From sequence record NC_054908.1: a DNA stretch of 64,000 bases, one strand, 5' to 3'. This document shows, one piece after another, positions 3,421-5,664 of the stretch (positions are counted from its first letter, which is position 1; the number at the start of each line of letters is the position of its first letter). Below the pieces are notes generated by a model. It saw only the letters and a list, made by a program, of their open reading frames with translations. It did no database searches and was not told the origin of the DNA. The DNA comes from Escherichia phage vB_EcoM_DalCa. The position numbers and the translations under genes are program-made.

Positions 3421-3894
3421 TCATTTGATTTGTTTAGCAGACCAAATGCGGTCTTTAATAATTTTTTGGATGTCTTCAACATACTCAAGAGAGTGAACAT
3501 GTGGATTATCTTTGAAACTATAAGCACGGGCTAACTTTTGGCCTTCGGTTTTGATTACTAAAAGCTCTTTAAGGATAGCTTCATATTTAGCGATAATTCC
3601 TTTAACGATATTTTTTTCTTGTGCCGCTTTAGGATCTGCTTTAGGAGCAGGTTTACCCGAAGCCTTTGCAAAAGCAGCGCCAGTAGCAACTAAACTTTTC
3701 CAGGCCATACTAACTGCATTTCCCGTAAATCCTTCCGCTTTCATGTCGCGTGCAAACTGGAATCGCGATTCATCAGAAGCATCTTTATAGGAATATTTAC
3801 CCGCGGCAATGGCAGCTTTTGCAACAGCTTGAATTTCGGTGCTAGATGCTTCATTTAACACCGCTTCATTTAAAAATTGAGTATATGATTTCAT
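3421..3894 (-). CDS. candidate capsid-packaged internal protein (157 aa) with CTS-like N-terminus
   Basis: ATG at 3894 gives N-terminus MKSYTQFLNE (L-x-E at 8-10); ORF-track extension to 4071 reads through terminator and tRNA-like sequence. Confidence 0.65.
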   Translation of the reverse strand: MKSYTQFLNEAVLNEASSTEIQAVAKAAIAAGKYSYKDASDESRFQFARDMKAEGFTGNAVSMAWKSLVATGAAFAKASGKPAPKADPKAAQEKNIVKGIIAKYEAILKELLVIKTEGQKLARAYSFKDNPHVHSLEYVEDIQKIIKDRIWSAKQIK

Positions 3895-3932
3895 CTTATT
3901 TCCTGTTTTAATTTGTAGATTTAATATACTAA

Positions 3933-3940
3933 TATTTATA
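3933..3940 (-). promoter_or_regulatory. late promoter -10 element TATAAATA (minus strand)
   Basis: exact TATAAATA about 40 nt upstream of ATG 3894. Confidence 0.4.
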
Positions 3941-3969
3941 CCAAAAAGCCCCAACCTTTCGGTCGGGGC
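3941..3969 (-). terminator. intrinsic terminator hairpin, exact copy of the 3384..3412 hairpin
   Basis: same GCCCCGACC-GAAA-GGTTGGGGC stem-loop plus TTTTT. Confidence 0.6.
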
Positions 3970-4020
3970 TAAGCCTTGCGGCAACCTTGTCGGGGTTCCA
4001 CCTGCTAAGGCAAGTGTTTG

Positions 4021-4179
4021 TACGAAACGCCGGGATTCGAACCCGGTTATTAAGTAGTTGACGCTACTCAATATTTTTAAAAGGCCATATCTCGACCATA
4101 TCCGAACGTTCCGTCAAAAACGCTACTCGGCTTACGGCAAAGATATTTCCTCGAATCGATAATTCGGTGCGCCGTTTCT
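4021..4179 (-). ncRNA. candidate small stable RNA with tRNA-like T-arm and acceptor end
   Basis: minus-strand CCGGG-TTCGAAT-CCCGG T-arm then CGTTTCG; a complementary GAAACG lies about 150 nt upstream; no complete cloverleaf found by hand. Confidence 0.3.
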
Positions 4180-4277
4180 GCTGTGATAGTAAAGAGCCAG
4201 AACACAGTAAAACTGTGGGAGGAAACTATACTCCAGGGAACATCAGTCCGACGACTTACCGGTAGCGACCCGGTTTC

Positions 4278-4628
4278 TTAATATTCTTTTAAAGAATCAA
4301 TATATTCACGGCGTTTACGCCACAAATCAATTGCTTCATACGCGGATTCAGCATTTCGAATTAGCCTGCATTTATGTAAAGACTTATGATTTTGATATTG
4401 TGTAGATAACGGAATTGTATCTAAAAGGTCTTTACGATCAAAATATTCGTAACCATCTAAACCAAATGAACGATTTTTGAGAAATTGCCAATGACCATAT
4501 TCGTTTTCGACATAAACATAATCTGCATGCTGATAAAGCAAATTAATTACACGTTCAGAAATAACAGTATCATTATGATTAAAATAGAATGTTAAATCAT
4601 GAACTACTAAATAAACATTACCTTTCAT
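4278..4628 (-). CDS. hypothetical protein (116 aa)
   Basis: ORF immediately downstream of the tRNA array on the same strand. Confidence 0.6.
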   Translation of the reverse strand: MKGNVYLVVHDLTFYFNHNDTVISERVINLLYQHADYVYVENEYGHWQFLKNRSFGLDGYEYFDRKDLLDTIPLSTQYQNHKSLHKCRLIRNAESAYEAIDLWRKRREYIDSLKEY

Positions 4629-4646
4629 ATTTTCCTCACTTATAAT

Positions 4647-4722
4647 TGGTCGAGGCAGTAGGGATCGAACCTACGACCTAGGACTTAGAAGGTCCTTGCT
4701 CTTCCTTCTGAGCTATGCCCCG
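4647..4722 (-). tRNA. tRNA-Arg (anticodon UCU)
   Basis: manual cloverleaf: acceptor CGGGGCA/TGCCTCG, D-stem GCTC/GAGC, anticodon loop CTTCTAA, T-loop TTCGATC, CCA encoded. Confidence 0.85.
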
Positions 4723-4726
4723 TAAT

Positions 4727-4802
4727 TGGGGTGACCGATGGGAGTCGAACCCATGACTACGAGAATCACAATCTCGAGTTCTACCAACTGAACTACGGCC
4801 AC
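4727..4802 (-). tRNA. tRNA-His (anticodon GUG)
   Basis: acceptor GTGGCCG/CGGTCAC, anticodon loop TTGTGAT, T-loop TTCGACT, discriminator C, CCA encoded; no G at -1. Confidence 0.8.
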
Positions 4803-4916
4803 ATTAATACCTACTCCAACAATCAAGATGTCTTCACACGAAATTAAGAGAAGAGTGATCAGTTCAACCCCTATAATCGCGTCAAGTAGATATTAATGTG
4901 ACAGTTGTCACAAATT

Positions 4917-4991
4917 TGGCGGACGTGATAGGATTCGAACCTATAACCAATCGCTTAACAGGCGATCGCTCTGCCATTGAGCTACACATCC
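4917..4991 (-). tRNA. tRNA-Asn (anticodon GUU)
   Basis: acceptor GGATGTG/CACGTCC, anticodon loop CTGTTAA, T-loop TTCGAAT, CCA encoded. Confidence 0.8.
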
Positions 4992-4995
4992 AAAT

Positions 4996-5082
4996 TGGTG
5001 GGGAGTGGTGGAGTCGAACCACCCGAGTCGCAATGACAATGGATTTACAGTCCACACCGCTACCTCTACGGGATAACTCCCC
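4996..5082 (-). tRNA. tRNA-Tyr (anticodon GUA), long variable arm
   Basis: acceptor GGGGAGT/ACTCCCC, anticodon loop CTGTAAA, T-arm GGTGG-TTCGACT-CCACC, CCA encoded. Confidence 0.8.
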
Positions 5083-5091
5083 AAATTAATT

Positions 5092-5166
5092 TGGTGGCCC
5101 TGGGTGGAATTGAACCACCATCTGGCGATTATGAGTCGCTTGCTTGAACCTTCCAGCTACAGGGCC
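5092..5166 (-). tRNA. tRNA with CAU anticodon (Ile-lysidine type or elongator Met)
   Basis: acceptor GGCCCTG/CAGGGCC, anticodon loop CTCATAA, T-loop TTCAATT; occupies the tRNA-Ile position of the T4 array. Confidence 0.75.
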
Positions 5167-5167
5167 T

Positions 5168-5243
5168 TGGTGCTGATTGACGGAATCGAACCGCCGACCT
5201 TCTCATTACAAGTGAGTTGCTCTACCTACTGAGCTAAATCAGC
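5168..5243 (-). tRNA. tRNA-Thr (anticodon UGU)
   Basis: acceptor GCTGATT/AATCAGC, anticodon loop CTTGTAA, T-loop TTCGATT, CCA encoded. Confidence 0.85.
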
Positions 5244-5248
5244 AAAAC

Positions 5249-5338
5249 TGGCGGAGGCGATAGGATTTGAACCTATGAGTCGCCGGAGCGACTGCCGGTT
5301 TTCAAGACCGGTGCATTAAACCACTCTGCCACGCCTCC
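5249..5338 (-). tRNA. tRNA-Ser (anticodon UGA), long variable arm
   Basis: acceptor GGAGGCG/CGCCTCC, anticodon stem-loop CCGGT-CTTGAAA-ACCGG, T-loop TTCAAAT, CCA encoded. Confidence 0.85.
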
Positions 5339-5340
5339 AG

Positions 5341-5414
5341 TCTCCGTGGCAGGATTTGAACCTACGACATTCTACTCCCAAAGCAGACGCTCTACCAAAC
5401 TGAGCTACACGGAG
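5341..5414 (-). tRNA. tRNA-Pro (anticodon UGG), no encoded CCA
   Basis: acceptor CTCCGTG/CACGGAG, anticodon loop TTTGGGA, T-loop TTCAAAT; 2 nt from tRNA-Ser 5' end. Confidence 0.85.
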
Positions 5415-5424
5415 TAAATTAAAT

Positions 5425-5498
<74 letters not shown>

Positions 5499-5503
5499 AA
5501 ATT

Positions 5504-5590
5504 TGGTGCGAGAAGTGGGACTCGAACCCACAAGGAAATCATTCCGCAGCATTTTAAGTGCTGTGCCTTTACCAATTTGGCCATTCTCGC
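5504..5590 (-). tRNA. tRNA-Leu (anticodon UAA), long variable arm
   Basis: acceptor GCGAGAA/TTCTCGC, anticodon stem-loop CAGCA-CTTAAAA-TGCTG, T-loop TTCGAGT, CCA encoded. Confidence 0.85.
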
Positions 5591-5591
5591 G

Positions 5592-5664
5592 CTGGGAATA
5601 AAGGACTCGAACCTTTGCATCCTGGAATCAAAATCCAGTGCCTTACCAACTTGGCTAATTCCCA
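5592..5664 (-). tRNA. tRNA-Gln (anticodon UUG), no encoded CCA
   Basis: acceptor TGGGAAT/ATTCCCA, anticodon loop TTTTGAT, T-loop TTCGAGT; 1 nt from tRNA-Leu 5' end. Confidence 0.85.

Follow-up and report, generated by a model that had tools for sequence, protein, structure and literature searches.

The closest described counterpart of the element reported here is species 1 RNA of bacteriophage T4 (also called 'species I RNA' or 'band 1'), a tRNA-shaped stable RNA that has been known and sequenced since the 1970s. Paddock and Abelson in 1975 and Broida and Abelson in 1985 are said to have described its processing by RNase P and the CCA enzyme, the modification of its T-loop and a length of 140 nt. 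The T4 tRNA cluster is transcribed from a middle promoter as one RNA of ~1.75 kb that stops after the species I gene and gives rise to the tRNAs and both stable RNAs (PMC2330249). These two, RNAC and RNAD, have been detected in T4 by northern blot and accumulate late (PMC9697503). The function of rnaC is still given as unknown in reviews and recent papers (PMC3014915, PMC9697503, PMC12685909). What rnaC and rnaD do is a small, old question in T4 biology.

Identification of rnaC in phage vB_EcoM_DalCa

The window analysed, a stretch of 64,000 nt from Escherichia phage vB_EcoM_DalCa (NC_054908.1), is that of a T4-like phage of the genus Tequatrovirus. A sequence-only reading had placed a tRNA-like element on its minus strand at 4021-4179 and likened it to the small stable RNAs of T4. 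The likeness is borne out: the segment aligns almost base for base with positions 4741-4877 of the T4 record X03016 ('species 1 RNA') and with rnaC of the T4 genome KJ477684, annotated as 'rnaC; small, stable RNA; species 1 RNA'. T4 rnaC and the DalCa RNA are 97-99% identical along their entire length and agree in ends, position and predicted fold. Homology is full-length, the position is at the end of the operon, and a T arm is found together with an acceptor stem formed by the two ends of the RNA; by sequence, position and fold, the DalCa element is the orthologue of T4 rnaC. In the alignment, the first 17-21 nt of the segment match the 3' end of T4 'species 2 RNA' (rnaD). The finding is real yet already known, the T4 RNA being annotated in reference records. 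Taken together, and with function left aside, the identity, boundaries, fold and biogenesis of rnaC in DalCa are held with high confidence.

BLAST searches against phage records returned 807 matching records, nearly all from Tequatrovirus and its relatives. Hundreds of Tequatrovirus genomes match the segment at 97-100% identity, and 415 records do so at 99% or more. A covariance-model search, which had been suggested along with the original observation, was carried out with a model of rnaC homologues and gave a single match in the window, at 4018-4158 on the minus strand (163.7 bits, E ~1e-35). The features of the locus are as follows.

4022-4158, minus strand: rnaC (species 1 RNA) orthologue, 137 nt, from CGAUUCG... 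to ...CGUUUCG-U, placed by T4 alignment, covariance model and fold
4165-4281 (approximate ends), minus strand: rnaD (species 2 RNA) orthologue, placed by alignment to T4 'species 2 RNA' and by its own consensus fold
4179-4165, minus strand: 3' end of rnaD falling inside the interval 4021-4179, which holds the whole of rnaC plus the last ~15 nt of rnaD
4647-5664, minus strand: cluster of 11 tRNA genes upstream of rnaD and rnaC (ARAGORN and Rfam)
3942-3970, minus strand: intrinsic terminator of the tRNA/stable-RNA operon, with 10-bp stem, GAAA loop and U run (terminator scan)
3999-4016, minus strand: small hairpin CACUUGC-CUUA-GCAGGUG in the rnaC 3' trailer, read off the sequence

The gene order (tRNA cluster, rnaD, rnaC, terminator, all on one strand) is shared with T4, for which X03016 lists 'species 2 RNA', 'species 1 RNA' and 'pot. 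terminator' in the homologous stretch, the last label lying on the hairpin homologous to the DalCa terminator. The element had been described as lying between a 116-aa ORF and a terminator, and this placement holds: the ORF is at 4278-4628, the terminator scan places a terminator-like hairpin, with a T run behind it, at 3970-3947, and the region 3895-4277 lies between the two. The trailer hairpin is kept in T4, and in phage JS10 it persists directly after rnaD. The DalCa locus differs from that of T4 in having 11 tRNAs rather than 8, and in that the 116-aa ORF (phrog_3355) parts tRNA-Arg from rnaD, whereas the two abut in T4. PHROG scans of the flanking ORFs gave families of unknown function only. 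By analogy with the operon organisation described for T4, the 11-tRNA cluster is most likely co-transcribed with rnaD and rnaC in DalCa.

ARAGORN reported the 11 tRNAs at 4647-5664 on the minus strand only, with neither tRNA nor tmRNA at the element (none in 3900-4640). At the Rfam gathering score only 11 tRNAs pass, with no family for rnaC, and a sensitive Rfam scan of 3850-4700 gave chance-level matches only, with none to RF00005 (tRNA). The nearest match in that scan was tRNA-Sec at 4022-4114 (17 bits, E=2.2; gathering score 47). Rfam appears to have no model for rnaC. The lack of a complete cloverleaf, pointed out from the sequence beforehand, agrees with both programs.

Fold of rnaC

The rnaC alignment comprises 35 distinct sequences from ~11 phage genera, taken from INPHARED records, IMG/VR and one metagenome scan. 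In all 35 sequences the RNA measures 137 +/- 3 nt between the same ends; Melville, VPA32 and the Marfavirus clade are no exception, although their long-arm sequence is unrelated. The fold is a tRNA-shaped four-way junction consisting of an acceptor stem, a long arm, a second hairpin (hairpin 2) and a T arm. Its parts in DalCa are listed below, with nt counted from the 5' end of the RNA.

4152-4158, minus strand: acceptor-stem 5' strand CGAUUCG, nt 1-7, pairing with 4029-4023
4082-4151, minus strand: long arm, nt 8-77, several helices split by internal loops, at the position of the tRNA D arm
4074-4081, minus strand: single-stranded junction UUUAAAAA, nt 78-85, nearly invariant, with AAAA(A)U conserved in alignments
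4048-4073, minus strand: hairpin 2, nt 86-111, 10-bp stem and 6-nt CGUCAA loop, at the position of the anticodon arm
4030-4046, minus strand: T arm CCGGG-UUCGAAU-CCCGG, nt 113-129, 100% paired
4023-4029, minus strand: acceptor-stem 3' strand CGUUUCG, nt 130-136, covarying with the 5' strand
4022, minus strand: discriminator-like U, nt 137, invariant in 26 of 26 tabulated members

With the four-way junction laid on the 35 sequences, 92.5% of cells are paired, as against 36-50% when the partners are slid by 1-3 columns. Double (compensatory) changes occur in 35 of 50 pairs, a number reached by none of 500 shuffles. RNAalifold arrives at this junction too and shows compensation in 27 of 43 pairs, and the MFE fold, RNAalifold and the explicit pair counts are concordant. 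The 137-nt DalCa RNA has an MFE of -50.1 kcal/mol (z = -4.6 against shuffles), and folding, which had also been suggested at the outset, yields an acceptor stem paired between the two ends of the RNA. The helices contain G.U pairs, and the minus-strand RNA is therefore taken as the selected molecule.

The acceptor-like stem has 7 bp (nt 1-7 with nt 130-136) and stacks on the canonical T arm. The T arm is present on the minus strand as the sequence-only reading described it, with T-stem strands CCGGG at 4046-4042 and CCCGG at 4034-4030 on either side of the T-loop TTCGAAT (4041-4035), and it is followed, as was also said, by CGTTTCG (4029-4023), and then by T (4022) and ACAA. The third pair of the T-stem is GC in 16 sequences, UA in 16, AU in 2 and UG in 1, and one Kanagawavirus subclade has a degenerate T-loop (UGCAUGC). 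Helices 2-5 of the long arm are 87-100% paired, with double changes in 19 of 22 pairs; in Melville, VPA32 and Marfavirus the sequence of this arm is wholly replaced, with length and pairing retained. Hairpin 2, which X03016 labels 'pot. stem-loop', is 94.6% paired with double changes in 9 of 10 pairs, and is without anticodon-loop features.

Comparison with tRNA, tmRNA and YrlA

With canonical tRNA (RF00005), rnaC shares the 7-bp acceptor stem, the 5-bp T stem and the 7-nt UUCGAAU loop, as well as a single discriminator base followed by (N)CA and tRNA-type spacing in arrays; at the CCA position DalCa encodes ACA rather than CCA. It differs from tRNA in its length of 137 nt, in two U.U mismatches in the acceptor stem, and in the remainder of the cloverleaf, where a 70-nt arm stands at the position of the missing D arm and a 6-nt CGUCAA 'anticodon' loop at that of the 7-nt anticodon loop. 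On this model, rnaC would work like a tRNA in its upper half only. The tRNA-like domain of tmRNA also joins an acceptor stem and T arm to a large non-tRNA insertion, but rnaC has A3-U70 or G3-C70 rather than G3.U70 (one or the other in 34 of 35 sequences), and lacks both a tag reading frame and the series of pseudoknots. The YrlA RNAs, Y-RNA-like mimics of tRNA in bacteria and phages, carry their tRNA-like module internally and use their two ends for the Ro-binding stem. rnaC resembles them in being a stable non-coding part-tRNA mimic that is probably handled by tRNA enzymes, but its ends form the acceptor stem, and it has no Rfam match.

Partner of the 3' acceptor strand

Three stretches could pair with CGUUUCG: the 5'-terminal CGAUUCG, the upstream GAAACG and the internal CGGAACG. 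The first makes 5 of 7 pairs, with two central U.U mismatches. Among the 35 sequences, pair 1 is CG in 34 and AU in 1, pair 3 is GC in 20, AU in 14 and GU in 1, and pairs 4 and 5 are U.U in 32. The strands read CGGUUCG and CGUUCCG in Karam-, Kanagawa-, Gelderland-, Kagamiyama-, Moon- and Marfavirus, which changes pair 3 from A-U to G-C, and CGGUCCG and CGGACUG in Tegunavirus, where the two U.U positions have become U-A and C-G. Pectobacterium phage PM2 has AGGUUCG and CGAAUCU, with A-U at pair 1 and U-A at both U.U positions, so that its stem is fully paired. On this covariation across genera, the acceptor partner of CGUUUCG is CGAUUCG at 4158-4152, which sets the 5' boundary of rnaC; this boundary therefore differs from that of the sequence-only reading.

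That reading had instead taken the upstream hexamer as the acceptor strand.

4173-4178, minus strand: GAAACG, the acceptor strand first proposed, part of the rnaD 3' region

The RNA would then be ~158 nt long (4179-4021) and closed by GAAACG (4178-4173) with CGUUUC (4029-4024). The hexamer does occur there, ~149 nt upstream, and its complementarity is perfect over 6-7 bp, where the mature acceptor stem has the two U.U mismatches; moreover, RNAfold of 4179-4022 selects the GAAACG helix and sequesters CGAUUCG in a small leader hairpin. However, rnaC comes immediately after a tRNA in at least six genera, Karam-, Kanagawa-, Gelderland- and Kagamiyamavirus among them, where neither rnaD nor GAAACG lies upstream, and in the rnaD-less genera the best upstream complement reaches 5-6 of 7 at scattered offsets. 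It is the 5'-terminal strand of rnaC that covaries with the 3' strand, and the annotated T4 ends place the 5' end of rnaC at CGAUUCG. GAAACG belongs to rnaD, the consensus fold of which pairs CGGCG.AC with GUCGUCG near the rnaD 5' end, and GAAACGGCGCAC stays unchanged in JS10 despite the deletion of rnaC. We consider the ~158-nt RNA very unlikely, and on these comparisons the GAAACG helix as a mature structure is already refuted.

In a weaker form of the same proposal, the GAAACG helix may be transient in the precursor, competing with the mature acceptor stem. An upstream 7-mer of Tegunavirus, UGGUUCG at -24, complements the differing 3' strand of that phage (estimated chance ~0.04), but this 7-mer falls within a CDS, and the MFE of the Tegunavirus precursor retains the mature acceptor. 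A conserved precursor helix was rejected on both of these counts, one lineage at p ~0.04 being too weak. As modelled, the helix is a thermodynamic possibility in Tequatrovirus precursors only, without comparative support.

The internal CGGAACG (rnaC nt 46-52) pairs with the CGUUUCG 3' strand at 7 of 7 positions, which would turn 4114-4022 into a degenerate or unusual tRNA gene of ~93-96 nt with acceptor CGGAACG/CGUUUCG and a long extra arm. The 17-bit Rfam tRNA-Sec match at 4022-4114 speaks for such a pseudo-tRNA, as do the 'tRNA-Phe' that ARAGORN calls on the homologous part of Pet-CM3-4 and the tRNA-OTHER, tRNA-Lys, tRNA-Met or tRNA-Phe annotated over homologous stretches in G9062, G29, PG7 and KKP_3262. 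The pairing is nonetheless anti-compensatory, as Karam- and Kanagawavirus set CGAAACG against CGUUCCG with an A.C mismatch, and the CGGAACG segment forms the apical helix of the long arm, in which all cells are paired (100%) and 5 of 5 pairs covary. In addition, ARAGORN finds no tRNA in the window at this place, the tRNA-Sec score is far under the gathering score of 47, and rnaC has no anticodon-type loop. The internal partner, and with it a pseudo-tRNA of ~95 nt, was ruled out by the anti-compensatory changes and the covarying long-arm helix, and a tRNA gene of this kind is exceedingly improbable.

Loop-loop complementarity

Two loops of the lower half of rnaC are complementary at all six bases.

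4112-4117, minus strand: apical loop of the long arm, UUGACG, nt 42-47, complementary to and covarying with 4063-4058
4058-4063, minus strand: loop of hairpin 2, CGUCAA, nt 96-101, candidate loop-loop helix with 4117-4112

The pairing was seen in 20 of 20 sequences at first, and then in 99.5% of cells in a larger set, with duplex energies of -4 to -8 kcal/mol. Two independent double substitutions are found, A-U to G-C in the Marfavirus clade (UUGGCG/CGCCAA) and C-G to U-A in Tegunavirus (UUGAUG/CAUCAA); a one-sided change is seen in PM2 only, where a 4-bp core is kept. From these two covariation events it is rather probable, if by no means certain, that UUGACG and CGUCAA form a kissing loop in rnaC. 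The simplest reading of the covariation would be an intramolecular kiss that ties together the two lower arms and makes a closed ring of the lower half of the molecule. Dimerisation or an alternative long-range duplex is another possible source of the loop covariation, and counting against an intramolecular contact, an arm of ~27 bp has to bend back onto one of 10 bp. An extended duplex of the long-arm apex with hairpin 2 is the RNAfold MFE in VPA32 and some Marfavirus members; it was rejected as not general, since complementarity continues past the six loop bases in VPA32 and not in T4 or Melville.

The putative kissing loop of rnaC has a parallel in the HIV TAR-TAR* kissing complex, in which two 6-nt hairpin loops are likewise complementary at all six positions. 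The rnaC loops differ in belonging to one molecule, where they cap neighbouring arms of the four-way junction, and their contact is inferred from covariation only. The complementarity of UUGACG and CGUCAA was not found described in the searchable papers.

Relationship of rnaC and rnaD

T4 rnaD is the stable RNA next to rnaC on the same transcript, but the two are unrelated in sequence and fold, rnaD having a 5' hairpin, a terminal helix, a hypervariable middle and no T arm. In the rnaD consensus fold, the GAAACG region makes up an internal loop and the terminal helix, and the variable middle shows compensatory changes. The idea of rnaD as a second tRNA-like RNA was rejected, as its single-sequence fold gave z = 0.11 and its consensus fold is without a T arm. 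In JS10, rnaC is precisely deleted, so that ...GAAACGGCGCACAGA is followed directly by ACACTTGCC..., with GAAACGGCGCAC unchanged; JS10 carries rnaD without rnaC, and Karamvirus and others carry rnaC without rnaD. On this distribution in the genomes, rnaC and rnaD are independent modules. As JS10 and VR26 are both without rnaC, it is dispensable in some backgrounds.

Distribution and annotation

The rnaC family is confined to T4-like phages of Enterobacterales. Scans of metagenomes and GTDB genomes recovered T4-like contigs only, plus two false positives, of which one (L055) scored 11.5 bits with the rnaC model and the other (L042) was a pattern site unmatched by the model. The covariance model separates cleanly, with members at 91 bits or more and tRNAs and other non-members at 25 bits or less. 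rnaC is the last gene before the terminator in Tequatrovirus and lies mid-array elsewhere.

In most deposited T4-like genomes the rnaC locus is unannotated, and in others it is labelled 'hypothetical protein' or tRNA-Met, -Phe, -Lys or -OTHER. Many phage records carry CDS annotations over the stretch, and the DalCa window has ORFs of 32-42 aa there, which would be real genes if the stretch were protein-coding. However, these short ORFs differ from genome to genome, the substitutions in rnaC track base-pairing and not codon structure, its indels are of 1-3 nt and lie in loops, and the T4 reference records annotate an ncRNA at this place; there is next to no chance that the short 'hypothetical protein' ORFs are real genes. 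By-products of the analysis are the corrected boundaries, a structure backed by covariation, a candidate tertiary contact and evidence that annotation of rnaC is widely missing or wrong.

Processing

In DalCa, the encoded nucleotides that follow the discriminator-like U are as follows.

4019-4021, minus strand: 3' trailer ACA, at the position of the tRNA CCA end (family trailer N-C-A)

Among 26 tabulated members, the trailer after this U is ACA in 20, UCA in 2 and CCA in 4, with CCA encoded exactly at the trailer only in the Marfavirus clade and PM2 (4 lineage representatives). Position -1 is U in 21 of the 26 and A in the other 5; in DalCa it is U. In Karam-, Kanagawa-, Gelderland- and Kagamiyamavirus, rnaC sits flush within the tRNA array, 7-10 nt before the next tRNA, and the spacer from the CCA of the preceding tRNA to rnaC is 6 nt (AAYAAU). 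The spacer, invariant U and NCA trailer fit a tRNA-type maturation of rnaC, to judge from the family alignment. By analogy with T4, we infer that the 3' end of a polycistronic tRNA transcript yields DalCa rnaC as a small, stable non-coding RNA. Judging from its anatomy and from T4 tRNA precursors, RNase P would cut before C4158, after the 6-nt tRNA-type spacer, 3' exonucleases would trim the RNA to the discriminator U4022, and the host CCA-adding enzyme would replace the encoded ACA by CCA, giving ~140 nt.

Possible function

A role of rnaC in decoding or charging is unlikely, because there is no anticodon-type loop and no G3.U70, and the C1-G72 and U73 combination is not known to match any E. 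coli tRNA identity set. A tentative candidate, to which we give a minor share of our belief, is that rnaC imitates the 'top half' of a tRNA, cannot be charged, and occupies or titrates some factor by which the acceptor/T-arm minihelix is recognised. Such a factor could be a host or phage protein of tRNA processing, modification or defence. It is somewhat more doubtful that the kiss both forms and serves a structure-specific role, such as decoying or regulating a factor that reads the tRNA minihelix. If it does, the arms locked by kissing would make a rigid acceptor/T-arm 'top half' without an anticodon, and the factor in question might be an enzyme of processing or modification, or else a host defence against phages that is directed at tRNA 3' ends.

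The main rival to a top-half mimic is that rnaC is a structured leftover, a decayed tRNA-derived spacer with no function of its own, retained solely as a processing or stability element of the tRNA operon. rnaC always lies within or appended to tRNA arrays, it is missing from JS10 and VR26 with no obvious replacement, and no function has been found for it in ~50 years (PMC3014915, PMC9697503, PMC12685909). On the other hand, its array position varies between genera, T4 rnaC accumulates as a stable RNA, and the length is held at 137 +/- 3 nt. Moreover, the single-stranded AAAAAU, both 6-nt loops and GAGGA/GGCCU are invariant across ~11 genera, even where the long arm is replaced. Because single-stranded segments stay invariant despite the replaced long arm, constraint on rnaC would go beyond the needs of a spacer; the alignment points to strong constraint on its length, junction and both loops. 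A structured leftover is on this evidence improbable.

Handles for mutagenesis and pull-down work on the function of rnaC and rnaD are the covariation-backed fold, the candidate kissing loop and the occurrence of the two RNAs independently of each other across genera. The same rnaD SNP is reported to have arisen in every replicate line when a T4-like phage adapted to a new E. coli host (PMC12685909), a recurrence with which a structure-specific role of rnaC would fit.

Natural loss of rnaC and the elements that remain

The rnaC gene (the orthologue of T4 species 1 RNA) has been precisely deleted by nature in phage JS10. At the junction, the hairpins and terminator that otherwise lie downstream of rnaC follow directly on rnaD (the species 2 orthologue; ...GCGCACAGA joined to ACACTTGCC...). 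VR26 (L009) likewise lacks rnaC, and the congeners VR7 and SP18 carry it.

L008 (phage JS10) 1203-1400: rnaC deletion junction
Window 3971-4017, minus strand: interval between rnaC and the terminator
Window 4016-3999, minus strand: conserved small hairpin CACUUGC-CUUA-GCAGGUG

A CCCCGAC motif is repeated between rnaC and the terminator, with one copy making up the 5' strand of the terminator's stem. In JS10 the loss of rnaC has spared the small hairpin as well as the CCCCGAC copy that lies upstream.

Annotation and structural divergence of rnaC

The rnaC locus is wrongly labelled in many GenBank records, as tRNA-OTHER, tRNA-Phe, tRNA-Lys, tRNA-Met or "hypothetical protein". Mislabelled records also include those of G29, PG7 and KKP_3262. 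In Pet-CM3-4, the 3' two-thirds of rnaC were called as a 96-nt "tRNA-Phe" by ARAGORN itself.

L003 (G9062) 1170-1265: mislabelled rnaC
L005 (Pet-CM3-4) 1247-1342: mislabelled rnaC
L026 (F48) 816-953: mislabelled rnaC
L025 (Klebsiella phage VPA32) 807-947: rnaC with extended complementarity

In the Kanagawavirus Q7622 group (L004 and L023), the rnaC T-loop is UGCAUGC rather than UUCGAAU, and the canonical T54-A58 type motif is thus gone, with the stem and the remaining RNA intact. UUCGAAU is retained in other Kanagawaviruses (PEi26, Kosakonia 305). In VPA32, complementarity between the apex of the long arm (AAAGUAGUUGACGCUGC) and hairpin 2 (GUAGCGUCAACUACUUU) spans approximately 16 of 17 nt, extending well past the 6-nt loops, and RNAfold favours this long-range duplex. 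One hairpin may have been duplicated in inverted orientation, or the complementarity may point to a conformational switch.

rnaD and the upstream tRNA array

Window 4803-4916, minus strand: 114-nt gap from tRNA-His to tRNA-Asn
Window 4278-4628, minus strand: 116-aa ORF (phrog_3355)
Window ~4235-4185, minus strand: rnaD middle segment

The surrounding tRNA array is tightly packed, and the gap within it contains no tRNA and has no Rfam match. The tRNA-Asn gene is the reported target of the SegB homing endonuclease in T2/RB-type phages (PMC2330249).

In T4, tRNA-Arg adjoins rnaD directly, whereas in the window phage the two are separated by the 116-aa ORF. The ORF stop codon (TAA, 4280-4278) is continuous with the conserved rnaD 5' sequence GAAACCGGG, and the ORF looks like an operon insertion at the site where the rnaD 5' end is processed.

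Close relatives (L001, L003, L012, L015, L028 and L008) differ in the central 45-50 nt of rnaD, where at least four sequences unrelated to one another occur, unlike the 5' 45 nt and 3' 25 nt, which are invariant. During adaptation of a T4-like phage to E. coli ECOR34, an identical rnaD SNP was reported in every line (2025, PMC12685909). Compensatory changes are present in the helix flanking the variable middle.
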